IMG/VR virus record: IMGVR_UViG_3300025572_000005
Strand: one strand, 5' to 3'
Length of the DNA: 41,544 bases
Origin: a virus
The notes under the pieces are model-generated. The model saw only the letters and a list, made by a program, of their open reading frames with translations, had not been told where the DNA came from and searched no databases. Positions 1,993-41,438 of this stretch are shown here, in pieces (positions within the stretch are counted from its first letter, which is position 1; every line of letters starts with the position of its first letter). A program made the translations under genes and the position numbers.

Positions 1993-2874
1993 CTATCCAC
2001 CTCGCAGAGCCGCTAGGGCCGCATCCTTACCGCGGACGCGCCCGCCATCTGGTAACTCGTACCATCCGCCACCCACATGTCGAGGTTCAGCTTCGAGTGT
2101 GGTCTCTCCGGATTCGTTGCCCTTCGGCGGCCACTCGACGCGAGGTGGTTCGAGGCTCGCGAGGTACTGCATTCGTTCTTCGTTCGGGTGGCGGTATACG
2201 TCTCCCGGACTGTAATTTTGTTTGGTGAGCTTGCACCGGAATGGTGCAATCACCTTCGCCTCTAACACAGGTCCTCGCCCTCCTCCCGATAGTGCCGCAT
2301 CGACTAGCCGGCACGTGTAGCACCGATGACACGGCTTGCCGCTTGGCGTAGGATGCCGACACCACCAGCACAATTTCAGCAGATCGGGTGGTGTCGCCCT
2401 CACGACCTCGGCCTTCATCATGTGCTGAATGGGATGCTCCCAGATAAGTTCTCGTTCGCACACCTCGTACGATAGATTCCGATACCGCCGGTGCGCTCGC
2501 TGCATGACAGGACCATCGGGGCCGTCCGCATCGGAGTCCCAATGATCGGTGCGGATCACGTGACGAATGTGCTTGTATTTTGGGTCCGACATCAGAATCC
2601 CGATCCACAGTGCCCAGATGCAATGATCCCGCACGACGTAGCGCACCGTGCCGTAGTCGAACGCGCTTTCGCTGTAGATGAAACGGGTGAGGCCCTGGCC
2701 GCGCATCCAATCGAGGATGCGTTTCACGGCCTGGGCCTCGTATGCGACACGCCCCTCGCGATTGGTGAGGTGGACGTGGTGAACGAGGAGCGTCCTCCCC
2801 TCCAGGAGCGCCCGCCACATGCAGTAGGCAGAGTCAATGCCCCCGGAGAGGAGGAGCAGGGTGTCCGGCGTCAT
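1993..2874 (-). CDS. QueC-like PP-loop ATP pyrophosphatase fused to a C-terminal head-module-type domain
   Basis: PP-loop LLLSGGIDS at residues 6-14. Cys cluster CWWC-x9-CHRCYTCRL resembles the QueC Zn site. The C-terminal ~90 aa (…SPGDVYRHPNEERMQYL…HVGGGWYELPDGGRVRGKDAALAAL) is a distinct domain. Gaps are 6 nt to the capsid gene and 3 nt to the connector gene. Confidence 0.75.
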   Translation of the reverse strand: MTPDTLLLLSGGIDSAYCMWRALLEGRTLLVHHVHLTNREGRVAYEAQAVKRILDWMRGQGLTRFIYSESAFDYGTVRYVVRDHCIWALWIGILMSDPKYKHIRHVIRTDHWDSDADGPDGPVMQRAHRRYRNLSYEVCERELIWEHPIQHMMKAEVVRATPPDLLKLCWWCRHPTPSGKPCHRCYTCRLVDAALSGGGRGPVLEAKVIAPFRCKLTKQNYSPGDVYRHPNEERMQYLASLEPPRVEWPPKGNESGETTLEAEPRHVGGGWYELPDGGRVRGKDAALAALRGG

Positions 2875-2880
2875 GGGCCG

Positions 2881-3912
2881 TTAGACCTCCCCGCCGTTCT
2901 CCCCGCCGTTCTCCCCGCCATTCTCGCCGCCGCCACCGCTACCGAGGGCGACCTTGTGCTTGAACGCGACGATTCGAATCGCCTTGTTCTCGTACACTCG
3001 TTGCCAGTTGGTGCTGGTCGCGAGTTCCGCATTGGTCGGGAACGCGCCGGTGACGGAAGTTTCCGTCCACTTCACACCGCGCGGGTGCAGGATGAATACA
3101 CGCCGGTTGATGAGGTAATCCTCACCCGCAAGCGCGTTTCGATCCGTCTCGGTGAGCGGAACCGCACCCATGGCGTCGCCGTTGCCAAGCGCGATTGCAC
3201 CAGGCCCGAATAGGTACGTGGTCGTCACGCCCGTATCCGTGTCGAACGGGATGCCGTCGTCGACGATCACGCGCTTGCCCATGTAGGTGGGCACGCGGTC
3301 GCTTTGTCCCGCCTCCTGCACGTACTCGATGAGCTGCTGCTTGGCGAGGTAGGCTTCCGTCGCCGAGTGCATGAGGACGCCCGTTAGCTGACCCTTAGCG
3401 TCGCCGAGCTTCTGCGTCGCGTCGATGAATGTGTTGCCATTGATGTACGCGCCATCCCCGGCCTCACTGGAGATGTCGTGGACGTTGCCCGACATCGTAG
3501 CGGCGCCGAAGATGCCGTCGAGGGTCGAGAGCAGGATCGCCTGGAACCTGCGCGCCCAGTATCCGGCCACGAGATCGCCAATGGCTCGCATCGGGTCGTC
3601 GCCCGCCAGCAGGTGCGCCAAGTCGTTGACGCCCCAGGCACGGCCACGAGCCTGCCGACGCGCCACGTCCTGCCCGGCGGTGATCTTGCCCGGCGTCAGC
3701 GCTCCCTGGTCCGAGAGCACCTCATCGTCGCCCGTCAGGTCCTCCCAATAGGGCATGTGCACCAGCGTGCCGCCGCTGTTCGCGAGTCGGTCGAACTCCG
3801 TCGTGTTCGCAATGATCCCCGACTGATACAGCGCCGACAGTTCCATGCTGCGCTGGATCACATACGGGTTAAATACCTCGGGAATGATCACGTCCGAGAT
3901 TTTGGTAGACAT
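2881..3912 (-). CDS. Major capsid protein (HK97 fold)
   Basis: 343 aa, immediately downstream of the scaffold gene. Composition and length are typical. The C-terminus is GSGGGGENGGENGGENGGEV. Confidence 0.85.
   Translation of the reverse strand: MSTKISDVIIPEVFNPYVIQRSMELSALYQSGIIANTTEFDRLANSGGTLVHMPYWEDLTGDDEVLSDQGALTPGKITAGQDVARRQARGRAWGVNDLAHLLAGDDPMRAIGDLVAGYWARRFQAILLSTLDGIFGAATMSGNVHDISSEAGDGAYINGNTFIDATQKLGDAKGQLTGVLMHSATEAYLAKQQLIEYVQEAGQSDRVPTYMGKRVIVDDGIPFDTDTGVTTTYLFGPGAIALGNGDAMGAVPLTETDRNALAGEDYLINRRVFILHPRGVKWTETSVTGAFPTNAELATSTNWQRVYENKAIRIVAFKHKVALGSGGGGENGGENGGENGGEV
2887..2934. repeat. 12-bp tandem repeat (ctccccgccgtt, three copies plus one degenerate) encoding the (GGEN)n tail of the capsid protein
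   Basis: Read directly: ctccccgccgtt ctccccgccgtt ctccccgccatt ctcgccgccgcc. Confidence 0.85.
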
Positions 3913-3919
3913 AACTCAA

Positions 3920-4609
3920 TCACTTTCCTTTCGCTTCTTTCTGCAGACGGGCCGCGAGCTGCGGATTCTCCCGCAGGATGCGACCCTGTTCGGTCAGATT
4001 GAAATGCTCCTTGCTCCACGGGTTACGGTCGATGCCGCCCCCGCCGCCTGTGAATTCACTGCCGCTCTTGCCTGGTGCTTGCGTCCCTTTGAGTTCGGGC
4101 AGGTCGTTGAGCACGGCCTCAAGCGCGGCCTTGATCGCCGCCGCGTCAGGATTGCCTTGCTCGTCCACATCGACGCCCGACAGGTCAGCGAGTTTGAGCG
4201 CATAGGCGATGCGCTCAGGCTTGATACCAAGCGTCACAGCCTGGACGCGCGCCTCGGCGTTGATAAGGCGCTCGTTGGCCGCGGCCTGCGCCTCTTGTGC
4301 CTTGCGTTCGGCCTCCTCTTTTTCGGCCTTGAGCCGCTCCTCGGCGCTCATTTGCTCCTTCTTGCGCGCTTCTTCCGCCTCGGCTTCCCACTGTTTGCGG
4401 GCGCGGGCGAGACGCTTTTCGATCATGGCGTCGATCTCGGCTTGGGTCATCGTTTTAACGTCGCCCTTGCCCTTGTCGCCGCCACCGGCGTTATCTGGAC
4501 CGCCGTCGCCACCGGTGCCGCCGTCATTGCCCCCGGCGTTGGGGTCGCCGCCCTCTCCAGGCTCGGCGAACAGTTGCAGGTTGATCTTGAATCGCTCGTC
4601 GGTTTGCAT
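3920..4609 (-). CDS. Capsid scaffolding protein (DUF4355-like)
   Basis: N-terminal ...INLQLFAEPGEGG motif, Gly-rich linker and a long charged coiled-coil (EAEAEEARKKEQMSAEERLKAEKEEAERK). Sits directly upstream of the capsid gene. Confidence 0.8.
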   Translation of the reverse strand: MQTDERFKINLQLFAEPGEGGDPNAGGNDGGTGGDGGPDNAGGGDKGKGDVKTMTQAEIDAMIEKRLARARKQWEAEAEEARKKEQMSAEERLKAEKEEAERKAQEAQAAANERLINAEARVQAVTLGIKPERIAYALKLADLSGVDVDEQGNPDAAAIKAALEAVLNDLPELKGTQAPGKSGSEFTGGGGGIDRNPWSKEHFNLTEQGRILRENPQLAARLQKEAKGK

Positions 4610-4675
4610 GTCGTACCTCCATCCGTTTTAGGGCCGTCGCCCATGTATCCAGCAGTTTTGAGCCGTGCCGTAGGG

Positions 4676-4704
4676 CAAAAGAAAAGCGCCCCGAAGGACG
4701 CTTT
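4676..4704 (-). terminator. Intrinsic terminator on the minus strand upstream of the scaffold gene
   Basis: The minus strand reads GCGTCC-TTCG-GGCGC (one bulge, TTCG tetraloop) followed by TTTTCTTTTG. Confidence 0.5.
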
Positions 4705-4720
4705 GTGATAAACTGTTGGC

Positions 4721-4984
4721 ATGCCTGATAAATCAAACTTGGTCAAAGGTCAATTCCGCCCACCCGCGCCGCCCGTGTCGGCCCGCATCGACGCCGACGT
4801 GTTGCAGGAAGTCGAGCACCGGGAGGACGGCCCCTGGCTCGTCGTCTACGTGTCCGGTCGCAAGGTCGGCGAGGTGCCGATCGAGCCGGGAACGGAGCCG
4901 AAGCTCAAGCGGGCGAAGGTGTTGGACTTTCCTCACACCGCTCCGTCCGACATCGTTCCATTCGATGTCACCTCGCCCCCGTAA
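4721..4984 (+). CDS. Hypothetical 87-aa protein on the opposite strand inside the head module
   Basis: It fills a 358-nt minus-strand coding gap. Third-codon-position GC is high through most of the ORF, as in genuine genes here. There is no SD before the ATG. The 3' end overlaps the convergent gene by 17 nt. Confidence 0.45.
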   Translation: MPDKSNLVKGQFRPPAPPVSARIDADVLQEVEHREDGPWLVVYVSGRKVGEVPIEPGTEPKLKRAKVLDFPHTAPSDIVPFDVTSPP

Positions 4985-6041
4985 TCGACTCGCGCTCACG
5001 CCTGCGCTTGTGCTCCCTGCCCGATCTGGCAAGGTGCCGTTCAAGCTCCATTTCCCACTTCGTCACCATCTGCTGCGCCTGCATCCTTGCATCCATCGTG
5101 AGCGCCACGGCTTCCCTCCGCTTGTACTTGCGGATGTTACGCTCGATCTCCCGTTGGCGTTGCCGCGCCTCGTAGGAGGCTTCCCTCAGTTCCTTCGGGC
5201 GCCTCTCTGGCGGCTCCGTCAGACCGGGAATGAACGCCGAAATGCTATGTGTGCAATTTGGGTGCTGCAAGCCGTCTGCGTGCGCCTCGTCGACGGTCGG
5301 GTACCGCCCCGCATACTCGCCGCCGAGCGAGAGGATTCGCCCTTCCCACGGATCGCACTTTTCGCACGGTGACGGCGAGTGTGACACGATCACGAGGTCG
5401 TAGTTGTTCTCTCGCAATCGGTCAAGGTGCCCTTCCACCGCAGCCCGACCGGACGCCGTGCGCGTCGCCATCTCAGCGTAGCTTGCGATGTCCCAATTAC
5501 GACCTGCCGCGTCGACGAAGCCCGTGATACCCTGATCGGCCCAGACATTGAGCGCTACCTGCGCTGCCTCTCGGCGCGTCATCACGCCCGTGAGCGAGTA
5601 ACTTGCCGCCTCTGCAACGACGCTGCGGTACATATCCTCCGCAACGCGCAAAATGCGAAAGTGTGTTCCCATCAGCTTCCTCGTCGACTCTCCAACGATG
5701 CGCTCCACGGCTCGACGGTGCGTCACATGAAAGCTCGTGACAAGAGGTCGGTCGATCACGCTCTTTAGGTCGGCGACCGCCTCGGCGCTCCCGCCTTGGT
5801 ACGCCTCCCACACCGCCTTGCTGACTTGTTGCATCGCCTCTTTCTCCAGCTTCGAGGCTTCACGCTCGATGTCGCGCCGCACTCGCTGGATTTCGGCGAG
5901 CTTTGCTTGTTCCCAACCGTCGCTTTCGATGCCCTCAGCAATCGACTGCGCCACGCGCTGGAGCATGATGCGTTCAGCGTTGGCGTAGATGCGCCTAAGC
6001 TCAAGGGCCGCGTCTTCCCAATCTGCGGGTGAGGTGGGCAT
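4968..6041 (-). CDS. Minor head / head morphogenesis protein (SPP1 gp7, Mu F-like)
   Basis: Motifs ...NYDLVIVSHSPSPCEKCDPWEGRILSL... and ...LQHPNCTHS are typical of the Phage_Mu_F family. The start is set at the ATG with AGAGGTGGG SD and a TAATG overlap with the upstream ORF. Confidence 0.8.
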   Translation of the reverse strand: MPTSPADWEDAALELRRIYANAERIMLQRVAQSIAEGIESDGWEQAKLAEIQRVRRDIEREASKLEKEAMQQVSKAVWEAYQGGSAEAVADLKSVIDRPLVTSFHVTHRRAVERIVGESTRKLMGTHFRILRVAEDMYRSVVAEAASYSLTGVMTRREAAQVALNVWADQGITGFVDAAGRNWDIASYAEMATRTASGRAAVEGHLDRLRENNYDLVIVSHSPSPCEKCDPWEGRILSLGGEYAGRYPTVDEAHADGLQHPNCTHSISAFIPGLTEPPERRPKELREASYEARQRQREIERNIRKYKRREAVALTMDARMQAQQMVTKWEMELERHLARSGREHKRRRERESITGAR

Positions 6042-7743: not shown

Positions 7744-8970
7744 CTACGCCGCTCCTTTCTCTGCCACGATCCACGGTCGCCACACGCGTCGCAAACCGCG
7801 CACCGCATAGCGCAAGGCATCACATCCGTGGTCATTCTGCTTCAACGGCTTGTCTTCGCCTCTCACTTGCGCTTTATCGTCCCACACGTACGTGCCCATT
7901 TCTTCGATCAGGCCCGTGCAACTCGCATGAATCTTAAGCCGTCCCGCACCCAAGAGTGTGCTCACGTCCTGGATGCCGTCGATGACGGCGTTGTCGGCGG
8001 GCCACGTGCGAATTCCGTCGTGGCGCAACTGCGTGATAAACGACGCCGCCGACGGGTCGATCCAAATCCTCTGCGGAACGACGTTGCCGAGCCACCGCCG
8101 CAGTTCTGCGCTTAGCTGAGCGTCCGTCAGCCGCCGCCCCTTCGCCTCGCTGTCCCAGCGCCACTCGCGGCAGACGTAGAGCACTCCGTCCTGACCGACG
8201 CCGAGAAGGAGAAACACCGTCGGGTTCGTCGTGCCATAGTCGATGCCGACGTAATAGTGTTGGATCGGCGGGAGCGCCTTTATGACGTGTTGATCGGGGT
8301 CGAACATGTCGTAAACAGTACCTTCGGCGAGGACCCAGAGGCCGAGGATGTAGCGTTTGTACCACAGGCCCGTGTATTCCCGCTTGAGCGACTCGACGTA
8401 GGCTGGGTCGAGGTTTGGATTGTCATCAAGTCCGAAGCTCCAGTGCCGCAGGTCCAGCTCATGCGCCCGGTCGATGAAATCCCGCTTGAGCCAGTGAAAC
8501 GGACTGTCCGGGTTCGTCGTGCCGAAGAAGCGCGCTCCTGGAAGTGACAGGCGCGAGAGCATCATGGCGAAGAAGCTCTCCGGCCACAGCGTGATCTCAT
8601 CGCCGTAGCATCCCACGAGAGTCAGACCCCGGATTTTACCCTCACTGCGCTCGTCGTTCGCACCCGCGAGATAGACCCGTCTCCCGAGGATCATCGCTTC
8701 GCCTTTGCCGGACAACAGGCGAAACTCGTCCTCGTCCAACATCTCGGCAATGGGGTCGAGGATGTTTCGCTTGAGCGTACGCTCTGTCTTTCCGACCATG
8801 AGCAATTCGCCTGGAGGCCCATGCGCGACAAAATCGAGCCACCGGATGATACTCGCGACCGTCTTGCCCGAACGCACCGAACCATGCCAGATGTTGAGTC
8901 GCGCGTCTGCCTCAAGGATCGAGCGCCGTTGCTTACCCGTCGGTAGCGCCAACGTCGGCATCGGCCTCAT
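7744..8970 (-). CDS. terL: Terminase large subunit (PBSX / Terminase_3-like)
   Basis: Walker A GSVRSGKT, Walker B-like VGCYGDEIT, C-terminal nuclease region with IDYGTTNP and NDHGCDALRY. Confidence 0.92.
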   Translation of the reverse strand: MRPMPTLALPTGKQRRSILEADARLNIWHGSVRSGKTVASIIRWLDFVAHGPPGELLMVGKTERTLKRNILDPIAEMLDEDEFRLLSGKGEAMILGRRVYLAGANDERSEGKIRGLTLVGCYGDEITLWPESFFAMMLSRLSLPGARFFGTTNPDSPFHWLKRDFIDRAHELDLRHWSFGLDDNPNLDPAYVESLKREYTGLWYKRYILGLWVLAEGTVYDMFDPDQHVIKALPPIQHYYVGIDYGTTNPTVFLLLGVGQDGVLYVCREWRWDSEAKGRRLTDAQLSAELRRWLGNVVPQRIWIDPSAASFITQLRHDGIRTWPADNAVIDGIQDVSTLLGAGRLKIHASCTGLIEEMGTYVWDDKAQVRGEDKPLKQNDHGCDALRYAVRGLRRVWRPWIVAEKGAA

Positions 8971-9364
8971 CCCCCCGCAGGCGTTGCATTAGCTCGCTGA
9001 TTGCACCGCGCCGCTTGCCGCCGTCGTCGTCCTCCTGGCGGCGCTTATCCAAGAGCACCGCCAGTGCCATCGCTAGTTGCTGCAATTCGCCAGGTTTTGC
9101 CAGAATCTCAAGCATCGCGTCGGCCTTGTCAAGCGCCTTGTCAATCAGGCGAATCCGCTCGGCGCGTGCGTAAGTGATCCGGGCCTCGGTCGCTTTTTTC
9201 GGCTCGGCAACATTGCTCTTGATCCCTTCGACCTTCGCAATCCGGTTGATGGTGGACACATGACGCCCGAACTTGCGAGCGATTGCTCCCTGCGACATCT
9301 CGCCACTCTTGAGGGCTTCGATGATCTGTTGGCGCTCTTTCTCGCTCACAGGCTTCGGACGCAT
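8933..9364 (-). CDS. terS: Terminase small subunit (HTH-containing)
   Basis: HTH SQGAIARKFGRHVSTINRIAK. Overlaps terL by 38 nt. ATG at 9364 is preceded by GGAAGGTGG. The ORF track extends to GTG 9373. Confidence 0.7.
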   Translation of the reverse strand: MRPKPVSEKERQQIIEALKSGEMSQGAIARKFGRHVSTINRIAKVEGIKSNVAEPKKATEARITYARAERIRLIDKALDKADAMLEILAKPGELQQLAMALAVLLDKRRQEDDDGGKRRGAISELMQRLRGDEADADVGATDG

Positions 9365-9387
9365 GACCACCACCTTCCTTCACAAAC

Positions 9388-9428
9388 GGCGCGCGACGCG
9401 CCCCGCGGCGGAGGTGAGACCGCGGGGC
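9388..9428 (-). promoter_or_regulatory. Two adjacent GC-rich hairpins just upstream of terS
   Basis: Plus-strand sequences ggcgcg-cga-cgcgcc (9388-9402) and ccccgcgg-N11-ccgcgggg (9401-9428). Confidence 0.3.
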
Positions 9429-9469
9429 GTCGGGCCTGTGATCGTATTGCGCGCCGTGCCCGATAAATT

Positions 9470-10264
9470 CTACTTCGCCAACGGTAGCGCAGGCTGTAGC
9501 TCTGCCATGCGCTTTCGGATGACCTCGCAATACTCCGGCTCCTTCTCGATCCCGATACACGAAAAACCCTCCTGGATCGCTGCCAGGAGGGTTGTGCCGG
9601 AACCGGAGAAGGGGTCGAGGACTGTGCCGCCGGGAGGAGTGATGAGACGGATCATCCAGGCGGCCAAATCACGTGGATATGCTGCCGGGTGGCCGCGCGA
9701 GTCTGTTTGGGAAGGCGATACGGCAACCCAATCACGACAACGAGCGATTCCGCTTCTCAAGTCGGATGCCCCAGCCAGCCATTTCTTAAAACCTTCACCA
9801 GCCAGGCTTACGCCTATCCTGTCTGAAAACCTCCCATTCGCCTTGGGATCGCAGTACGGTTGCTGATCCTTCGCAAACCACAAAATGCGTTCCCAAGAAC
9901 GTCTGGGTCGCTTCGGGTGTCCAACAGGAGGCGCGTCAGGCTTCATCCAAATCAACTCATCACATTCGATCCATCCCGCCTCACGCAGTGCCAAACGGGT
10001 CCGATGCACGTAGTCCGACATCTCGCCGTTGCGAATGTGCTCCCGAATGTTGATGAGCACGCTCCCATGCGGCTTCAAAATGCGGCGCACCTGCTCCATC
10101 CACGCTACAGTCCAAGCGGGGTATTCCGCTTCTGGAACGCCGCCATACAACTTCGCCCGTTGCATCGCGTAAGGCGGCGACGTAACAACCGAGTCGACAC
10201 TTCCCTCGGGCAAGCCCTTCATCACTTCGATGCAGTCGCCTTCGTAGAGCGTCCACTCGGCCAT
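9470..10264 (-). CDS. DNA N4-cytosine / N6-adenine methyltransferase (beta class)
   Basis: Motif IV VVTSPPYA lies near the N-terminus and motif I VLDPFSGSGTT near the C-terminus. No adjacent endonuclease gene. Confidence 0.88.
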   Translation of the reverse strand: MAEWTLYEGDCIEVMKGLPEGSVDSVVTSPPYAMQRAKLYGGVPEAEYPAWTVAWMEQVRRILKPHGSVLINIREHIRNGEMSDYVHRTRLALREAGWIECDELIWMKPDAPPVGHPKRPRRSWERILWFAKDQQPYCDPKANGRFSDRIGVSLAGEGFKKWLAGASDLRSGIARCRDWVAVSPSQTDSRGHPAAYPRDLAAWMIRLITPPGGTVLDPFSGSGTTLLAAIQEGFSCIGIEKEPEYCEVIRKRMAELQPALPLAK

Positions 10265-10278
10265 GCGCTCACCCCCAC

Positions 10279-10305
10279 AAAAAAAGCGCCGCCCATCGGC
10301 GACGC
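10279..10305 (-). terminator. Intrinsic terminator 2, 14 nt upstream of the methyltransferase start
   Basis: The minus strand reads GCGTCGCC-GATG-GGCGGCGC (8-bp stem with one G-U pair) followed by TTTTTTT. Confidence 0.65.
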
Positions 10306-10311
10306 CATTCT

Positions 10312-10353
10312 ATCAAAAGCAAAATGCCGCACACCCTTGTTTGGGTGTACGGC
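10312..10353 (-). terminator. Intrinsic terminator 1
   Basis: The minus strand reads GCCGTACACCC-AAACA-GGGTGTGCGGC followed by ATTTTGCTTTTG. Confidence 0.6.
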
Positions 10354-10363
10354 TATCGCCGCT

Positions 10364-10393
10364 ATTATACACCTGTTTTGCAAGTGTCGTCAA
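10364..10393 (-). promoter_or_regulatory. Near-consensus sigma-70-type promoter (candidate late promoter)
   Basis: The minus strand reads TTGACG (10393-10388), an 18-nt spacer, then TATAAT (10369-10364). It starts 5 nt after the stop of ORF 10398-10739. Confidence 0.6.
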
Positions 10394-10397
10394 CACC

Positions 10398-10739
10398 TCA
10401 TGCGATTGTCCACTTTGGCGCGGGTTTGTTGGTGTACTGTCGCTTTCGTCGTCGACCGCCCTTGCTCCCGCCGCCGTGCTTGTCCTGCCTGCCCAGAGGA
10501 GCAAGATGCCCCCAAGGATACAGTGCGCCGTCGTTTGGATCGGGCTGCTCACCCTCCAATCGTTCGCGGTGCAGCTCATCGAACGTCCGGCGCACGTCGT
10601 CGGCGTCGTAGTCGATGAGTTGCGTCACAAACCGGCATACCGGGCACCTAATCCAGCCAGTGTGTTCCTCAATCGGTTGCATCACCGCGTCATCTTTGAA
10701 ACAGCGCACCTCATCATATCGCATGGGCATGCTCCTCAT
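10398..10739 (-). CDS. Hypothetical 113-aa protein with Cys motif and basic C-terminal tail; positional candidate for a late-gene regulator
   Basis: Contains ...GWIRCPVCRF... and a C-terminal GGGSKGGRRRKRQ. It is the last gene before the late promoter. The true start may be Met6 (10724), which has AGGAG 7 nt upstream. Confidence 0.55.
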   Translation of the reverse strand: MRSMPMRYDEVRCFKDDAVMQPIEEHTGWIRCPVCRFVTQLIDYDADDVRRTFDELHRERLEGEQPDPNDGALYPWGHLAPLGRQDKHGGGSKGGRRRKRQYTNKPAPKWTIA

Positions 10740-10742
10740 TTC

Positions 10743-10955
10743 TCACCCGGCACGTCGTACTACACGCAACTCATCGTAAGGGAAACTCTCGCGATAACCA
10801 CAATCCAGCTCCACCGTCGCAAACCGCGGGCCTGTCCACACGACGCGTCCGCGCAGGCGTTGCTGCGTCATCCGCACGTCACGCCGATCCGTGCGCTTGC
10901 CCCACGCTGTCAGATGCACGACTACCTCCACGCGGTCGCCTATCTGTACGCTCAC
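10743..10955 (-). CDS. Hypothetical 70-aa protein (small beta-rich, SH3/KOW-like impression)
   Basis: ATGA-type 4-nt overlap with the upstream gene. Sequence GDRVEVVVH...GRVVWTGPRFATVELD. Confidence 0.55.
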   Translation of the reverse strand: MSVQIGDRVEVVVHLTAWGKRTDRRDVRMTQQRLRGRVVWTGPRFATVELDCGYRESFPYDELRVVRRAG

Positions 10956-17926: not shown

Positions 17927-18784
17927 TCATGCTCTGAAAACCGCGTCCATGTACGCCCTTATGAAACGCGCCGCGAGGACTGGAACGATTGCATTGCCCG
18001 CACCCCGCAGGAGAGCCACTCGTCCGGGTAGCCCATCAACCAGAGGCTCAAGGCCGGGTTTAATGCGCCTTGCGGTGCCGTCTGCGCAGGGGACCCAGAC
18101 GTAATCCCCCCACGGCCTGCAGAATGCGCCGTCCTCGTCAGCGATGTCCAGGGGCTCTCTTTCCGCACACGATTCTTCGCGTCGTCGGCCAACGGCGTAG
18201 GCCAACCGGCTAGCCGTGCCTGATCCTCCAGATTCCGCGCTTGCCCCTTTATCCATCGGGTGCCCTTTGCGTCGCCACGTGCCCGGGGAATATGCCACCC
18301 ACCATAGCCGTTGTCGGATGTGCGGCGCGCCGACGCTCGCAGCCGGCAAATCGGCGGCCCCGACGGCATATCCCATTGCTTCCAGGTCAGCTCGTACTCC
18401 GGCGAGCCATCGACGGCCATCAGAGCTTGCAACCTGCTCGCCAAAGATAACTGGAGGTCTACACTGATCAATGAGCCAACGCCATGCCCACCATAAGGCC
18501 CTCGGGTCGTCATCCCCCTTTCGAGCGCCTGCCGAGGAGTAAGGATGGCAAGGGCAGGATCCGGTCCACACGGGCCACTCATCCGGCCATCCTGCGAGCC
18601 TGAGCGCATACGGCCATCCGCCGATCCCGGCGAAGAAGTGAGCGTGTCGGTATCTAGCAAGCTCGTCTGGACGTACATCCTCGATGCTCCTCTCATCCAC
18701 TACGCCGGCGGGGATCTGATCTGCTGCCATGAGTTCGCGCAACCACGCTGCCGCTTTGGGATCGAACTCGTTGTAGTAGATCAC
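17927..18784 (-). CDS. DNA (cytosine-5) methyltransferase
   Basis: Motif I FFAGIGG, motif IV SCPCHPYSSAG, motif VI FGEQV, motif X GAGNAIVP. The start is set at GTG 18784, preceded by GGGAGGTGGGG. Confidence 0.88.
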   Translation of the reverse strand: MIYYNEFDPKAAAWLRELMAADQIPAGVVDERSIEDVRPDELARYRHAHFFAGIGGWPYALRLAGWPDEWPVWTGSCPCHPYSSAGARKGDDDPRALWWAWRWLIDQCRPPVIFGEQVASSDGRRWLAGVRADLEAMGYAVGAADLPAASVGAPHIRQRLWWVAYSPGTWRRKGHPMDKGASAESGGSGTASRLAYAVGRRREESCAEREPLDIADEDGAFCRPWGDYVWVPCADGTARRIKPGLEPLVDGLPGRVALLRGAGNAIVPVLAARFIRAYMDAVFRA

Positions 18785-18872
18785 GTCCCCACCTCCCGCA
18801 TATCTGTTGTGCGCATGGCGCATCCTACACTCGCGCCCTGTGCGCCTGTGGCGGCGGGGTTGATAACGCAGG

Positions 18873-22904: not shown

Positions 22905-23444
22905 TCACCTCGGCTTCTTCTGGTATCCCTTGTCCTGCATGCGCCAGTTGAAGCGCTCGTACACCTCGGCGGGGCTGATGCCGTACTCCTCGCAGATCAC
23001 CGACACCAGCGTTTCGATCGCGTTCTCTGCGCCGAGGAGCTCCATCATCAGGCCCTCGATGATCTCCTCGCGCCGCTCTGGCGTGACGTTGCTCGGCTTG
23101 TTCACGGCGTCGAACCCCCGTATCGCCTCGATGGCCTCCTCCAGCTCCTCCAACGTTTTGGCTTTCACACTGCTCCGGTGCAGGTCCACGTTCTCGCCGT
23201 CGAGCTTGCGATGGACGAACACGAGTGACGCAACCGCCTCGTGCAGCGCCTTGTAGAGCCACGCGCAGTCCAGCTCTTTGGCGAGCGTCCGCAGCACGTC
23301 GGGGTTGTCGGGGATGCGCCCGTTCTCGACGTGCGAGATGTACGTCCGATGCACGTGGGCGATCCGGGCGATGTCGTCTTGCCGGATGCCCCGCTTGGTC
23401 CGAACTTCCCTCACTGCCACTGCAACTGCGTTCACGATCTCCAC
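22905..23444 (-). CDS. XRE-family HTH regulator with C-terminal domain (179 aa)
   Basis: HTH_3-like segment VREVRTKRGIRQDDIARIAHVHRTYISHVENG. Confidence 0.75.
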   Translation of the reverse strand: MEIVNAVAVAVREVRTKRGIRQDDIARIAHVHRTYISHVENGRIPDNPDVLRTLAKELDCAWLYKALHEAVASLVFVHRKLDGENVDLHRSSVKAKTLEELEEAIEAIRGFDAVNKPSNVTPERREEIIEGLMMELLGAENAIETLVSVICEEYGISPAEVYERFNWRMQDKGYQKKPR

Positions 23445-23701
23445 CCCCTTGCCATCGCTTTTTCACGCCAGGGCGCTTTCGTGTGCGCCGTCTTCGGTGT
23501 AGATTCAAAACCGTCGAGCCCGAGGAGGCGTTTGACCTCCTGCTTGGTGACCAAGATCCGACCACCGATTTTCACGGCCCGAATGTGGCCCCGGTCGATC
23601 TTGTGACGCACTGCCTTGTCGGTCGTGCGCAGGAGAGCGGCGATCTCCTTGACATAGAGCACGTCGGGGAGGTTGTCTAGGGTGATGCGCTCGGCGCTCA
23701 T
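23432..23701 (-). CDS. Excisionase / MerR-type HTH DNA-binding protein
   Basis: LYVKEIAALLRTTDKAVRHKIDRGHIRAVKIGGRILVTKQEV matches the excisionase-family HTH_17 pattern. Confidence 0.7.
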   Translation of the reverse strand: MSAERITLDNLPDVLYVKEIAALLRTTDKAVRHKIDRGHIRAVKIGGRILVTKQEVKRLLGLDGFESTPKTAHTKAPWREKAMARGWRS

Positions 23702-23964
23702 ACGGCGACCTCCTCCCTCCCGTGGTCGAGAGCACCGTCCGTCCCTTTATCTTGTTCGCGATCTGCGGACTCAAAGGCAGGGAAGATGATTTGGTCGATT
23801 CGCACTCCGAAAAAGCGAGCCAATTTGTGTGTCATCCGGTACGATGGAACACGCTCACCATTTTCGATCTCGTTGTAGTACGAGCGGCTAATACCTGCAC
23901 CGTCGGCGACTTCGGACTGGGCGAGGCCCATCTTTTCCCGAAGCTGCCTTGGGGTATATCGCAT
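23698..23964 (-). CDS. Cro-like XRE-family repressor (first gene of the early operon)
   Basis: HTH LREKMGLAQSEVADGAGISRSYYNEIENG. ATG 23964 has GGAGGTGGTGATC upstream. Divergent from the repressor gene. Confidence 0.75.
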   Translation of the reverse strand: MRYTPRQLREKMGLAQSEVADGAGISRSYYNEIENGERVPSYRMTHKLARFFGVRIDQIIFPAFESADREQDKGTDGALDHGREEVAV

Positions 23965-23985
23965 GATCACCACCTCCTTCTAGTG

Positions 23986-24034
23986 TCCGCATACTGCGAA
24001 CCGTCATCCTTATTATACGTTCGCATAATGCGAA
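23986..24034. promoter_or_regulatory. Operator sites in the divergent switch region
   Basis: Perfect 15-bp palindrome TTCGCATAATGCGAA (24020-24034) and a 13/15 copy TCCGCATACTGCGAA (23986-24000). Each is followed by (A/C)CGTCA. A related GGATTTGCGATCC lies at 24068-24080. Confidence 0.6.
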
Positions 24035-24041
24035 ACGTCAA
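24012..24041 (-). promoter_or_regulatory. Early (Cro-side) promoter
   Basis: The minus strand reads TTGACG (24041-24036), an 18-nt spacer, then TATAAT (24017-24012). The perfect palindromic operator fills the spacer. Confidence 0.6.
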
Positions 24042-24099: not shown

Positions 24100-24119
24100 A
24101 GGCGGTGAGGAGTGTCGCC

Positions 24120-24494
24120 ATGAGCGAACAAACACTTGGACAGAAACTCAAGATGCTTCGCGGCGACGCGACGCTTGAAGAAATCGCCTCCCGCGTCGGA
24201 ATCGCGAAGACGACGCTTCACGGATACGAATCCGGTCGTCGAGAGCCGGATCTTGCTACTCTACAAAAGCTGGCTCGGGCGTTGAATACGACCGCGGCTT
24301 TCCTCCTCGGTGAAACCGACGATCCATCTCCGTCTCGCCACGTAGATACGATAGCCGCCTGGAGTCCACATGGTTATGACAAGCTGACGCCTGAGCAGCA
24401 GAAGGAGGTGGACGAGTTCATCGCCTACGTCCGGCACAAGTATCGAAAAGGAGGGCCGTATGATCGCCATGCGCGTCGGGATGACGTCAACTGA
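24120..24494 (+). CDS. immR: CI-like XRE-family repressor (ImmR-type)
   Basis: HTH LKMLRGDATLEEIASRVGIAKTTLHGYESG. ATG 24120 has GAGGAG 8 nt upstream. Overlapped by the downstream ImmA-like gene. Confidence 0.78.
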   Translation: MSEQTLGQKLKMLRGDATLEEIASRVGIAKTTLHGYESGRREPDLATLQKLARALNTTAAFLLGETDDPSPSRHVDTIAAWSPHGYDKLTPEQQKEVDEFIAYVRHKYRKGGPYDRHARRDDVN

Positions 24495-24951
24495 ATACCT
24501 CTACCAACTCGCGGATCGAGAAAACATCGCAATCGAATACAAGGCGCTGCCGGTCGATTGGCTGGGCGTTTACATTCACCTGGGCGACATGTGCGGGCCG
24601 TACATAGGGCTTTCCGAGCTCCTAGCACGAGATGAAAGGCAGGAGCGTTGCGTAATAGCGCATGAGCTGGGCCACCATTTTACGACGGTGGGCTACACCG
24701 TCGCCGCAAACTCGCCGACGGTCGGCTACCATATCTGCCGCGCGGAGCGGATCGCGAACGACTATGCTGTCGATTTGCTCGTACCTGCGGCTAGGTTTCT
24801 GGAGGGGGTGTATCGCAGGTATACGATGGACGAGCTTGCCGACGCCTTCTACGTTGTGCCGGAGTTCATCCAGTACCGGGCGATGAAAATCTATCGAAAC
24901 GGGTTACGCTGCTCTGAAATTCGAAACTTGTGTCGGAAGATGTCGAAATGA
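24460..24951 (+). CDS. immA: ImmA/IrrE-family zinc metalloprotease
   Basis: HEXXH motif VIAHELGHH. 35-nt overlap with the repressor gene, the classic ImmR-ImmA arrangement. Confidence 0.85.
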   Translation: MIAMRVGMTSTEYLYQLADRENIAIEYKALPVDWLGVYIHLGDMCGPYIGLSELLARDERQERCVIAHELGHHFTTVGYTVAANSPTVGYHICRAERIANDYAVDLLVPAARFLEGVYRRYTMDELADAFYVVPEFIQYRAMKIYRNGLRCSEIRNLCRKMSK

Positions 24952-25549: not shown

Positions 25550-26716
25550 ATGCCCCGCGGCAACATCGAAAAGCGCGGCGAAGGCCGCTACCGTATCCGC
25601 ATCTACCTCGGCAAACTCCCCGATGGCACGCCGATCTACCACCGGGAGACGGTCCGCGGCACGCTCGATGACGCCGAGCGCCGCCTGACGGCGATCCTGC
25701 GGGAACTCGACACCAATACTTACGTCGAGCGAAACGACTTAACGCTCGGCGAGTTCCTGGGGCAATGGCTGAAGGAGTGGGTGGAGGTCAGCGGCAAGAG
25801 CCAAAAGACTGTCGCGAGCTACAAGGAGATGTTGGGCTACATCATCCCGTCCATCGGTCACATCCCGCTCCAAAAACTCACGCCCCGACACATCCAATCT
25901 CACTACGCCAAACAGCTAAAGAGCGGGCGCAAGCGAGGCGGAGGACTCAGCCCTACGAGCGTCCACGGTCAACACCGGGTGTTGCACGCGGCCTTGGAAG
26001 TCGCCGTGCGTTGGGGGTATATCGCACGCAACCCCGCCGATGCCGTCGAGCCCCCGCCCAAGCGCAAGCGGGGCGGCGACGTGTGGACCGATGAGGAGGC
26101 AGCGCGGTTCCTCGCCCATGTGCGTGGCCATAGACTATATGCCCTGTTCGCCCTGGCGATGTCTACCGGGCTCCGGCGCGGGGAACTGGGTGGCCTGCGG
26201 TGGAAGGATGTAGACTTTGAGCGTCGACGCATCCACGTGCATCAGGTGTTGGTCTATATCGACGGCGAGCACGTGTTCAAGGACAAACCAAAGACCGAGG
26301 CGAGCGAGGACTACGTCTCGATCAGCCCTGCCGTCGTGGCGATCCTCCAGGAGCATCGCAAACGCCAACTGCGCGAGCGTTGGGTCTACGGCGAGCGATA
26401 TGAGGACAATGGCCTCGTATTCTGCCAGCCCAACGGACGCCGCCTCAACCTGGACAACCTCAGCAAGCGCGACTTTCCAAAGCTCTGCGAGGCGGCGGGC
26501 GTCTCGCGCATACGGTTTCACGACATACGCCACACCTACGCCACCCGCCTGTTCGAGCAAGGTGAGGCGTTGACCACAGTCCAGCGACGGCTCCGGCACT
26601 CCAAGGGCTCGACCACCATCGACATCTACGGCCACCCGTCGTCGAGGGCCGAGGAAGAAGCAGCGACCGCGATGGATGATTTACTGCCCCCTCTTGAGGA
26701 AGCCGAGGGCGAGTGA
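25550..26716 (+). CDS. int: Tyrosine integrase
   Basis: SAM-like N-terminal domain. Catalytic region ...GLRRGEL...RFHDIRHTYATRL...RLRHSKGSTTIDIYGH (R, H-x-x-R, H, Y). Confidence 0.93.
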   Translation: MPRGNIEKRGEGRYRIRIYLGKLPDGTPIYHRETVRGTLDDAERRLTAILRELDTNTYVERNDLTLGEFLGQWLKEWVEVSGKSQKTVASYKEMLGYIIPSIGHIPLQKLTPRHIQSHYAKQLKSGRKRGGGLSPTSVHGQHRVLHAALEVAVRWGYIARNPADAVEPPPKRKRGGDVWTDEEAARFLAHVRGHRLYALFALAMSTGLRRGELGGLRWKDVDFERRRIHVHQVLVYIDGEHVFKDKPKTEASEDYVSISPAVVAILQEHRKRQLRERWVYGERYEDNGLVFCQPNGRRLNLDNLSKRDFPKLCEAAGVSRIRFHDIRHTYATRLFEQGEALTTVQRRLRHSKGSTTIDIYGHPSSRAEEEAATAMDDLLPPLEEAEGE

Positions 26717-26800: not shown

Positions 26801-26826
26801 AGGCCCGTCGAGTGACGGGCCTTTTA
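26801..26826 (+). terminator. Intrinsic terminator downstream of int
   Basis: aggcccgtc-gagt-gacgggcct followed by ttt, and preceded by an A-run, so it may work in both directions. Confidence 0.6.
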
Positions 26827-26828
26827 GC

Positions 26829-26874
26829 TGGTGCGCGCGAGAGGATTTGAACCCCTGACCTTCTGATCCGTAGT
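26829..26874 (-). other. attP core: 3' half of a tRNA-Arg(ACG) gene (anticodon loop to CCA), not a complete tRNA
   Basis: The minus strand reads ACTACGGATCAGAAGGTCAGGGGTTCAAATCCTCTCGCGCGCACCA. This covers anticodon loop CTACGGA, variable AGGTC, T-arm AGGGG/TTCAAAT/CCTCT, acceptor 3' strand and CCA. No matching 5' acceptor, D-arm or 5' anticodon stem lies upstream. Confidence 0.65.
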
Positions 26875-26993
26875 TGGAAGCCATGCGTTCCCACCCCGCC
26901 CCGCCGATGTCCGATGTGCCCACTCTAACAGCAGTTTTACTAGCTCAGCCGATCGGGTGTTCGGGTATTCGTCCCCGCGTTTCCCCGCGCTTC

Positions 26994-40791: not shown

Positions 40792-41438
40792 TCACCCCGC
40801 CTTCTTGGTCACAAGTCCACGCAAGTACATCGTCGCCTCTTGGGGATCGGTAATCTTGCGCGTCTCGCCGCCTCCTTTGTCGCTCTTGTGCCGCCGATAC
40901 GCAATCGCATTGGCATAAGCGCTCTGCGGCGAAAGGCCGCGTACCAACGCCAAAAAGCGCCGCCAGGAGAATGTGTCATCCCGCAGCGCTTCGCGTAGGT
41001 CAATACGGTATTCACGCAGGAAATCAGCTTCAATTAGCGGCCAGTCTTCGAGGATCGACCTTGTTTCTTCGGCGTCTCCCCCGTCGCGGGGGCCTCTCCG
41101 TTTCCCTTCTCTTGGTCGCCGTCCTCAGCAGAGGGCAGGTACATGCCGATGATATGGGTAAAAATCTGCACGATCTGCACAGCCTCGATGCCTCGGTCGA
41201 GCCACTGCTCCACGCGATCAGTGCCGACGAACAGCTTGAGGTCGTCGATGTAGGTTTCCAGCTGCTCGCCAAGACCGCGACCATCATCCTCTTGATAGCG
41301 CATCGCCTTGAGCATGATGCGCGCCGGGAGCGTGGTCGGAAGATCGATGACTTCACCAAAGACTTTGATCTGCTTAGGTTCTACTTCTTCTGGTTTAGTC
41401 TCTTCCCAAAACGCGTCAAAGTCGACAAACTTCGCCAC
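40792..41438 (-). CDS. Tail assembly chaperone GT fusion produced by -1 frameshift at 41100-41106
   Basis: My translation of the -1 frame downstream of the slippery site reads ...ILEDWPLIEADFLREYRIDLREALRDDTFSWRRFLALVRGLSPQSAYANAIAYRR..., typical of gpT. It stops at 40792, 4 nt before the TMP start. Confidence 0.7.
41034..41438 (-). CDS. Tail assembly chaperone (gpG-like)
   Basis: 134 aa with an acidic N-terminus, between the major tail gene (across the junction) and the TMP. GTG start. Confidence 0.8.
   Translation of the reverse strand: MAKFVDFDAFWEETKPEEVEPKQIKVFGEVIDLPTTLPARIMLKAMRYQEDDGRGLGEQLETYIDDLKLFVGTDRVEQWLDRGIEAVQIVQIFTHIIGMYLPSAEDGDQEKGNGEAPATGETPKKQGRSSKTGR
41100..41106 (-). 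promoter_or_regulatory. -1 programmed frameshift slippery heptamer G_GGA_AAC
   Basis: In phase with the gpG frame (codons GGA112 and AAC113). Lambda G/GT uses GGGAAAG. Confidence 0.65.

Follow-up and report, generated by a model that had tools for sequence, protein, structure and literature searches.

A candidate transcription antitermination switch for the late genes of a temperate phage

We analysed the IMG/VR virus record IMGVR_UViG_3300025572_000005, a stretch of 41,544 nucleotides (nt) that is referred to here as the window, and describe a compact segment of its minus strand (10279-10739) in which the gene of a 113-amino-acid (aa) protein is followed by a near-consensus promoter and two terminator hairpins before the first late gene. 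Judged from the sequence, we lean slightly towards this segment being the late-gene control point of a temperate phage that acts by transcription antitermination, with the 113-aa protein as the factor. The sequence elements are rare and conserved, the pairing of the first terminator is kept, and gene, promoter, terminator and terminase are obligately linked across diverged phages.

Three small proteins that are unrelated to each other, lambda Q, Q21 and AlpA, each bind a constitutive promoter between its -35 and -10 elements and carry RNA polymerase over one or two leader terminators (PMC6606751, PMC7969949). By analogy, the module described here is best read as late antitermination of the Q/AlpA type with a new protein family. 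An earlier reading made from the letters alone (the sequence-only reading) had proposed a strong promoter, leader terminators and a late operon without a recognisable Q, and this layout is real; what it further proposed on the partner proteins and on the second terminator survives only in part.

Predicted late promoter, leader terminators and adjoining gene

The late promoter (10364-10393, minus strand) consists of a -35 TTGACG at 10393-10388, an 18-bp spacer (ACACTTGCAAAACAGGTG) and a -10 TATAAT at 10369-10364. The -35 begins 5 nt past the last stop-codon base of the open reading frame (ORF) 10398-10739, with 4 nt between them. Sigma-70 sites with at least 11 of 12 matches number two in the 41.5 kb, against a mean of 0.047 expected from 300 dinucleotide shuffles, and both are on the minus strand, where they head the early and the late gene blocks. 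Between 10264 and 1 on the minus strand no other promoter-like site of at least 9/12 was found, which agrees with the earlier statement that no further promoter could be recognised for the late genes. The early promoter, TTGACG-18-TATAAT at 24041-24012 on the minus strand, lies between a cro-like gene and a divergent XRE repressor/peptidase pair and is flanked by two copies of an operator palindrome, TTCGCAnTATGCGAA (24020-24034 and 23986-24000), that occurs nowhere else; this region is the early promoter/operator of an ImmR/ImmA-style switch. The operator was not found at the late promoter, and control of the late promoter by the repressor was rejected, given that the operator is seen only at the early promoter.

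Downstream of the -10 follows a conserved discriminator and initially transcribed core (AGCGGCGATAGCCGTAC, 10347-10363, minus strand). A palindrome in it, CGGC-GATA-GCCG at 10361-10350, crosses the predicted start at about 10357/10356. With the start placed 7 nt after the -10, the palindrome in the form CGGC-GAA-GCCG spans approximately -4 to +7, and its left half would therefore not be transcribed.

Terminator 1 (10314-10353, minus strand) is an 11-bp stem with its hairpin at 10353-10326 and its tail at 10325-10314. The arms are GCCGTACACCC and GGGTGTGCGGC, forming the stem GCCGUACACCC/GGGUGUGCGGC, and the tail is ATTTTGCTTTTG (AUUUUGCUUUUG); the loop, previously given as AAACA, is AAACAA and has 6 nt. 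At a folding free energy of -21.8 kcal/mol, hairpin 1 is the most stable terminator-like hairpin on either strand of the 41.5-kb window (fold z = -5.8), and the 96-nt leader folds at z = -6.0 relative to shuffled sequences. A short RNA ending at this terminator is predicted to be approximately 40-45 nt long. Terminator 2 (10279-10306, minus strand; hairpin 10305-10286, T7 at 10285-10279) reads GCGTCGCC-GATG-GGCGGCGC, with the stem GCGUCGCC/GGCGGCGC, the loop GAUG and then U7, and its folding free energy of -15.7 to -17.3 places it among the best terminator-like hairpins of the window. Both hairpins follow the promoter within 90 nt, and the T-run of hairpin 2 ends 14 nt before the ATG of a methylase gene (10264). 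When the sequence was re-read, the promoter, both hairpins, the T-runs and the distances were all placed as the sequence-only reading had placed them.

The 113-aa candidate antiterminator gene (10398-10739, minus strand) encodes a zinc-ribbon-like N-terminal part (C13, C32-x2-C35), a helix at residues 46-61 and a disordered C-terminal half with a Gly/Arg-rich tail (GGGSKGGRRRKRQY) that ends in PAPKWTIA. AlphaFold2 (AF2) models from 4 and 11 sequences reach a pLDDT (predicted local distance difference test) of 55 and 65 and are ordered only at residues 11-40 and 46-61; in both, short beta strands surround C13 and C32-x2-C35, and the C-terminal half lacks order. The protein has zero matches in Pfam, PHROG and NCBIfam. 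Homologues are rare, with 3 close ones among 5.8 × 10⁹ clustered proteins and 8 in a profile scan of 1.8 × 10⁹ representatives, and a search of the genome collection found no relative. Foldseek against PDB and BFVD returned only non-significant zinc-ribbon-like matches, and a sequence profile search of PDB returned nothing significant. Profiles of the Q, N and AlpA families gave zero matches to the 113-aa protein or to any early ORF scanned, the only related signal in the profile scans being a generic HTH_17 ORF 13 kb away. RinA, ArpU and sigma-like proteins were not detected among the ORFs scanned either.

Conservation among related phages

Five distinct metagenomic loci (L001/L002, L003, L004 and L005) encode proteins that are 77-94% identical to the 113-aa protein. 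In all five the gene is followed by 4 nt, TTGAC(A/G)-18-TATAAT and then AGCGGCGA(T)AGCCGTAC; no variation is seen in the hexamers or the start region, the spacer varies at 11 of its 18 positions and the flanks diverge. The start core is identical save for a 1-nt indel in L001, L003, L005, L014 and L029, and nearly so in L016. Hairpin 1 and its T-run are present in four of the five close loci. Where hairpin 1 is kept (L004, L001/L002, L005, L016 and L029), 98.5% of the cells are paired across six distinct sequences. In two pairs both sides have changed (A-U to G-C; C-G to G-C), one U-G wobble never varies, and there are G-U variants that can pair in the sense-strand RNA alone and would be mismatches on the opposite strand. 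This pattern of substitutions supports folding of hairpin 1 in the RNA of the late-gene strand. Conservation is nevertheless highest not in the hairpin but in the -10 and the adjoining AGCGGC-GA(A)GCCGTAC, which L003, L014 and L027 retain despite a different hairpin.

The proposal of a two-terminator switch holds for the promoter and the first hairpin: both recur in relatives, the hairpin with its pairing kept at the RNA level. Terminator 2 does not belong to the conserved part. Terminator 2 is absent from L001, L003 and L005, which have other sequence there. Downstream of the switch, L001 carries an HNH gene, L003 a long leader and L005 apparently terS; at the position of the window methylase, relatives have HNH or terS. 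The GC-rich leader block directly upstream of the window terS (9384-9472, minus strand) aligns with the sequence after terminator 1 in L005. In L005 this pre-terS block (9472-9384) follows hairpin 1 directly, and therefore hairpin 2 and the methylase are an insertion in the window lineage. On this sequence comparison, the methylase is inserted cargo relative to related phages. The motif TAGAAT occurs at both insertion junctions, 10312-10307 and 9472-9467 (window 9470-10306 compared with L005 1015-1142), and the flanking leader is contiguous in L005.

The GC-rich block lies in the 97-nt gap upstream of the window terS and can be drawn as an outer stem (CGGCGCGC/GCGCGCCG) and an inner stem (GCCCCGCGG/CCGCGGGGC) followed by UUUGUG. 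It was rejected as a structured RNA, with z values (-2.1 for the window block, and +0.3, -2.2 and -0.4) not better than those of shuffles, and is kept as sequence homology only. Another GC-rich leader segment, GGG(C/T)GCA...GGGCGGTC-TTCG-GACCGCCC-TTT...GCGCCC, is common to L001 (4655-4800), L003 (6560-6700) and L011 (760-830), sits between the first terminator and HNH/terS, and has a T5 tail after its inner hairpin in L011. It folds no better than shuffles do; a second terminator or a site related to cos are possible readings.

More distant loci encode proteins that are only 35-55% identical (L011, L012 and L006). In L011 the stop codon lies inside the -35 of TTGACA-17-TATTAT, and a weak and a strong hairpin, each with a T-run, precede a terS-like gene. 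The promoter of L012, TTGACA-18-TATAAT (12/12), overlaps the last codons and is followed by a 12-bp hairpin with a U-run. In L006, TTGACG-17-TAATCT stands after an intervening 61-aa ORF and is followed by a 7-bp GC hairpin with T6 and then by que genes, terS, terL and portal.

When IMG/VR was searched for the exact -10/start core, a match emerged in L014, downstream of the gene for another protein, of 120 aa. L014 and L029 have this 24-nt -10/start core in common, in each case after a protein whose only likeness to the window protein is the C-terminal WG..SP..K..GGSK-RKRK. The family of the L014 protein comprises 24 clusters, all unannotated, one of them from a 'Bacillota bacterium' genome bin. 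A third protein variant, lacking the Cys motif, is found in L021-L024. The shared tail is fused to at least three N-terminal parts: a CxnCxxC zinc ribbon, a four-Cys motif (GCxDCPAAKCxxSCPRYL) or a part that has no Cys domain. Exact-pattern scans of IMG/VR for the start core gave matches only beside genes of this protein group, plus three chance matches in coding DNA.

In 17 of the 19 loci with a member of the protein group, a promoter scoring at least 10/12 is present, its -35 beginning at -28 to +35 nt relative to the stop codon end and in most cases at -3 to +5; the stop codon itself often falls within TTGACA or TATAAT. The -35 scores 5/6 to 6/6 in all loci. The spacer is usually 18 bp and, in 10 of 16 lineages, TTGAC recurs exactly within it, versus a chance of approximately 1-2% per spacer; the window has only CTTGCA where most relatives show this second copy, and L011 and L012 have none. 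Terminator-like hairpins lie within approximately 130 nt of the promoter in most of these loci, and terminase genes follow 0.15-2 kb downstream. The neighbours vary by locus, both upstream (SNF2 helicase, Thy1, HTH (helix-turn-helix), VRR_NUC, Ead-like, 70-aa ORF) and as first downstream gene (methylase, HNH, que genes, terS). Therefore, the conserved unit is the gene with its promoter and leader, placed at the early/late boundary. A comparison of the cassette across related prophages had been suggested earlier, and in it the linkage of gene, promoter, terminator and terminase recurs.

Both ORFs upstream of the promoter had been named as antiterminator candidates. The 113-aa gene, which adjoins the promoter across loci, keeps this standing; the 70-aa ORF (10743-10955, minus strand) is not consistently linked. 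It precedes the 113-aa homologue in only three of the five close loci, and it was rejected as a consistent partner of the switch because its homologues occur only in L001/L002/L004 and are missing from L003, L005 and all distant loci, where different genes stand in its position. Its description as SH3/KOW-like found no family match in Pfam, PHROG or NCBIfam.

The start palindrome has a symmetric variant, CGAC-GAA-GTCG, in L027. Further covarying copies were rejected, given that pattern scans yielded only chance matches in coding DNA (L026, L030 and L031), and therefore palindrome covariation rests on one locus. As a single event it is suggestive only.

In L023 and L024 (approximately 3204-3235) the late leader contains a single CRISPR-repeat-like unit, GTCGCTCCCCGTGCGGGAGCGTGGATTGAAAC, which scores 17.6 bits against Rfam CRISPR-DR9, below threshold, and has an identical 3' handle. 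Possibly it is a lone repeat that serves as an RNA anti-CRISPR and is transcribed from the constitutive late promoter.

Phage genome around the candidate switch

The window is a temperate phage genome of approximately 61% GC, and its minus strand carries most genes. The lysogeny switch (23.7-26.9 kb) comprises the cro-like HTH gene (23698-23973, minus strand), the divergent XRE repressor (24105-24494), an IrrE/ImmA-type peptidase (24460-24951) and an integrase (25550-26716). The 3' portion of an incomplete tRNA, its CCA encoded (GGATCAGAAGGTCAGGGGTTCAAATCCTCTCGCGCGCACCA), adjoins the integrase at approximately 26826-26880 on the minus strand and is followed by a strong hairpin with a T-run (26824-26799); beside the integrase, this tRNA end is probably the attP core. 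A tRNA/tmRNA scan of the window found none.

Early genes extend from the switch to 10398 and encode SSB, HNH, a C5 methylase, a DnaD/DnaB-like initiator, DnaB helicase, MmcB-like, Ead-like and RusA proteins and an ABA-sandwich protein. The second gene of the early operon, next to cro, encodes an HTH_17 (excisionase/AlpA-like) protein (23432-23701, minus strand), which is most likely Xis and is of the same broad HTH kind as the antiterminator AlpA. The early operon also holds several unannotated small ORFs, zinc-ribbon ones included. A Bacillota host is suggested by the DnaD/DnaB_2-type initiator, DUF3789, the ImmA/XRE switch, strong GGAGG ribosome-binding sites and the Bacillota label of one relative.

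From 10264 down, the late genes run in the order N6/N4 DNA methylase, HTH terS-like, terL, portal, minor head, scaffold and major head, and the tape measure and tail genes wrap around the window end. The methyltransferase is the first gene past the terminators (9470-10264, minus strand; Pfam N6_N4_Mtase, 1.8e-40). The packaging/structural block starts with the terS-like HTH gene (8933-9373, minus strand) and terL (7744-8970, minus strand), with 53% identity to Streptomyces phage terminases. When the window DNA was compared with 50,697 phage records, similarity was limited to a 45-nt methylase motif. The window encodes two DNA methylases (9470-10264 and 17927-18823), and a QueC-like PP-loop ORF (1993-2874, minus strand) stands among its head genes. 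In L006, queD/queE/folE-like genes lie between the switch and terS (2138-3944). Together with the QueC-like ORF, they hint at deazaguanine DNA modification cargo in this phage group.

At 4704-4683, in a gap between genes, the late strand has one more terminator-like hairpin, followed by a T-run, which fits a processive mechanism. Just upstream of it is a weak TTGACC-17-TATCAG. In this region (4610-4985), between minor head and scaffold and opposite the late genes, the plus strand carries a small ORF (ATG near 4722, approximately 87 aa, MPDKSNLVKGQF...); a moron or internal attenuation are possible readings. Within the methylase gene, a hairpin of 11 bp with TTTTTCGTG after it (9566-9592, minus strand; folding free energy -18) falls in the region of the conserved C-terminal motif and could be chance or an internal attenuator. 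A hairpin followed by TTTTTGG (40957-40989, minus strand) lies between a tail-chaperone-like ORF (41034-41438) and the tape measure (start 40787), and this gap is the usual place of programmed frameshift signals. The late-strand hairpins at 1471-1446 and 9592-9566 (both in coding sequence) and at 40989-40957 (in the tail-chaperone/tape-measure gap) were not counted as evidence.

Proposed mechanism, alternatives and known systems

Regulation is placed at termination and not at initiation because the late promoter lacks an operator and unregulated late expression would be lethal to a lysogen. In the proposed mechanism, host RNA polymerase would fire constantly from the operator-free promoter (10393-10364). 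Transcripts would halt approximately 40-45 nt downstream (approximately 42 nt) at terminator 1, and those that leak through would, in this lineage, halt at terminator 2 (approximately 76 nt), so that no methylase, terminase, head, tail or lysis gene would be expressed. On induction, the early operon would be read from the promoter at 24041 and make the 113-aa protein, which would load on RNA polymerase at or just after initiation. It could recognise promoter/start-site DNA, by way of the TTGAC-like spacer repeat and/or the palindrome across the start, or its basic tail could read the first RNA nucleotides. The loaded polymerase would then resist the leader terminators and read the late genes. 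From the arrangement of these elements we infer promoter activity, termination at the hairpins, factor-dependent read-through and the role of the 113-aa protein as the factor.

Several observations weigh against this mechanism. Terminator 1 begins only approximately 5 nt past the predicted start, and therefore any factor must load within approximately 25-30 nt. The loading distance is shorter than in lambda, where tR' lies at +194. It is also shorter than in the AlpA system, whose terminator tB starts at +54 (PMC7969949). No TAnnnT pause element was seen by eye in +1 to +25 of the window, which has GATAGC at +1 to +6 instead; TATAG occurs at +2 to +6 in L011 and L021-L024 and is absent in the GGCGAAGCCG group. 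The 113-aa protein appears, in models of low confidence, to be devoid of an HTH or of any fold known to bind DNA or RNA polymerase. In L003 an insertion has displaced the 3' arm of hairpin 1, leaving the 5' arm, and the terminator-like hairpins that follow are only weak, and in L006 the 61-aa ORF separates the homologue from a weaker promoter. The loci are few and partly related, and their counts are not independent. Finally, an exact search for the host with the 41-nt tRNA fragment gave zero matches in 185,579 GTDB species-representative genomes.

The closest likeness is to the lambdoid Q systems (Q-lambda, Q21 and Q82; PR'/qut/tR'). Both have the regulator gene directly upstream of a strong unrepressed late promoter, and one or more intrinsic terminators between promoter and first late gene (the gene-adjoining promoter being present in 17/19 related loci). 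Both form a mosaic module with swapped flanking genes. Q-binding elements sit inside the promoter spacer, and the conserved sequence found there in many of the related loci is a putative counterpart. In Q21 the binding elements are 6-bp direct repeats at -21 and -13 (PMC6606751). In contrast to any Q, the 113-aa protein has neither sequence nor fold similarity to that group, is smaller and has no predicted HTH, having instead the zinc-ribbon-like part and the disordered basic tail. The gene here often overlaps the -35 or -10, the terminator comes approximately 5 nt past the start, there is no clear sigma-dependent pause element, and the hosts are likely Bacillota and not enterobacteria. AlpA of Pseudomonas aeruginosa likewise recognises a site flanked by the -35 and -10 and enables polymerase to pass one or two terminators of the leader (PMC7969949, PMC9371919). 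Like the 113-aa protein it is small and unrelated to Q, and it shows that at least two protein families have arrived at this mechanism. AlpA has an HTH, whereas the 113-aa protein has no HTH_17/AlpA match and its models show beta strands and one helix.

The same switch could instead be worked by the 113-aa protein as an RNA-binding antiterminator like lambda N, its Arg-rich tail binding the first nucleotides or the 5' arm of the leader RNA and either blocking terminator 1 or staying tethered to polymerase; we consider this unlikely, if worth keeping in view. Lambda N is small, has little ordered structure and carries an arginine-rich motif, and the N system has a conserved element at the very start of the controlled transcript. 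In keeping with this, the C-terminal half of the 113-aa protein is predicted to be disordered, and its tail is rich in Arg/Lys, a feature that is conserved, the Gly/Arg-rich form being common to protein families A, B and C. The conserved core also reaches into the RNA, where GA(U)AGCCGUAC belongs to the 5' arm of hairpin 1, and is kept in L003, L014 and L027 despite their differing hairpins. However, half of the palindrome would lie upstream of +1, so that the small hairpin spanning the start is probably not fully transcribed and would not form in the RNA. The spacer TTGAC repeat is a DNA feature, and the unrelated second terminators of different lineages are hard to cover through one bound hairpin. 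N is moreover an early-operon regulator encoded away from its targets, and it binds the boxB hairpin, which is not a terminator, whereas the sole conserved hairpin here is one; no boxA/boxB pair was identified, boxA not having been searched for. By analogy, the start palindrome and the spacer TTGAC repeat favour recognition of promoter DNA, as for Q and AlpA.

If the switch is real, the antiterminator might also be another phage protein, with the 113-aa gene merely the last early gene and serving a different function. The 113-aa protein is without a recognisable nucleic-acid-binding fold, and the early operon offers the HTH_17 protein, of the broad Xis/AlpA-like kind, and the unannotated small ORFs. 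We give this little credence. The adjacency or overlap of the gene family with the promoter persists where other early genes differ, the HTH_17 gene is 13 kb off beside cro, a common place for an excisionase, and the 70-aa ORF is not conserved at its position.

It is similarly improbable that promoter and terminator 1 together make up a gene for a small RNA, or an insulator, that closes the early operon, with the late genes read through from the early promoter or driven by an activator-dependent promoter invisible to a consensus scan. Short terminated transcripts from lambdoid late promoters can have functions of their own (StxS, PMC7547250). The activators RinA, ArpU and Ltr are common upstream of terS in Gram-positive phages, where they are the last regulatory gene before terS and switch on packaging, morphogenesis and lysis genes (PMC3152322, PMC3753634), and the 97-nt gap just upstream of the window terS holds a conserved block. 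Such activators, of the sigma-like or winged-helix kind, however, act on otherwise inactive promoters that lack a good -35; here terminators come after a consensus promoter, and the scanned ORFs gave no match to RinA, ArpU or a sigma-like protein. The predicted RNA is nearly all terminator stem, with approximately 4 unpaired 5' nt and little room for a seed, and L003, L014 and L027 retain the promoter and start core with other sequence in place of the hairpin. Early transcripts would also meet the same terminators.

A leader RNA that makes polymerase termination-resistant without protein, which the sequence-only reading had offered by analogy to HK022 put (a precedent, PMC9378689) and for which two adjacent stem-loops near the promoter and the missing Q speak, is very improbable: put lacks U-tracts and the stem-loops here are canonical terminators with U-runs, only the first is conserved and the second is lineage-specific, Rfam gave no family match (window at the gathering threshold, and 10200-10450 and L003 6300-7000 in E-value mode, with only sub-threshold noise such as the trpB motif at 24 versus 59 bits and a miRNA), and a consensus operator-free promoter with a self-acting element would be constitutively productive and keep the lysis genes on in the lysogen.

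Returning to promoter-loaded antitermination by the 113-aa protein, a broader proposal can be made, which we hold tentatively and just short of an even chance. It is that Bacillota phages carry an unrecognised superfamily of late antiterminators, in which a tail W-G-x-(S/A)-P...K...GGSK-(R/K)n is joined to at least three N-terminal parts, the gene overlaps its target promoter, and the factor loads by way of a tandem -35-like repeat and/or the start palindrome within 25-30 nt. If true, this would be the third or fourth independent invention of promoter-loaded antitermination. To our knowledge, it would also be the first for the late genes of Gram-positive phages, for which the described paradigm is activation by RinA, ArpU and Ltr.

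Late-gene control sets the time at which a prophage kills its host and packages its DNA. If the reading is confirmed, an unannotated protein family would perform Q/AlpA-like antitermination by a different architecture, and the compact unit of a gene, a 30-bp promoter and a 45-nt leader would allow the study of a very small protein that acts almost at the start site. It would further be a candidate orthogonal switch for synthetic biology. For annotation, a stop codon in or beside TTGACA-18-TATAAT, followed by a hairpin and located upstream of terS, would mark the early/late boundary in metagenomic phages.

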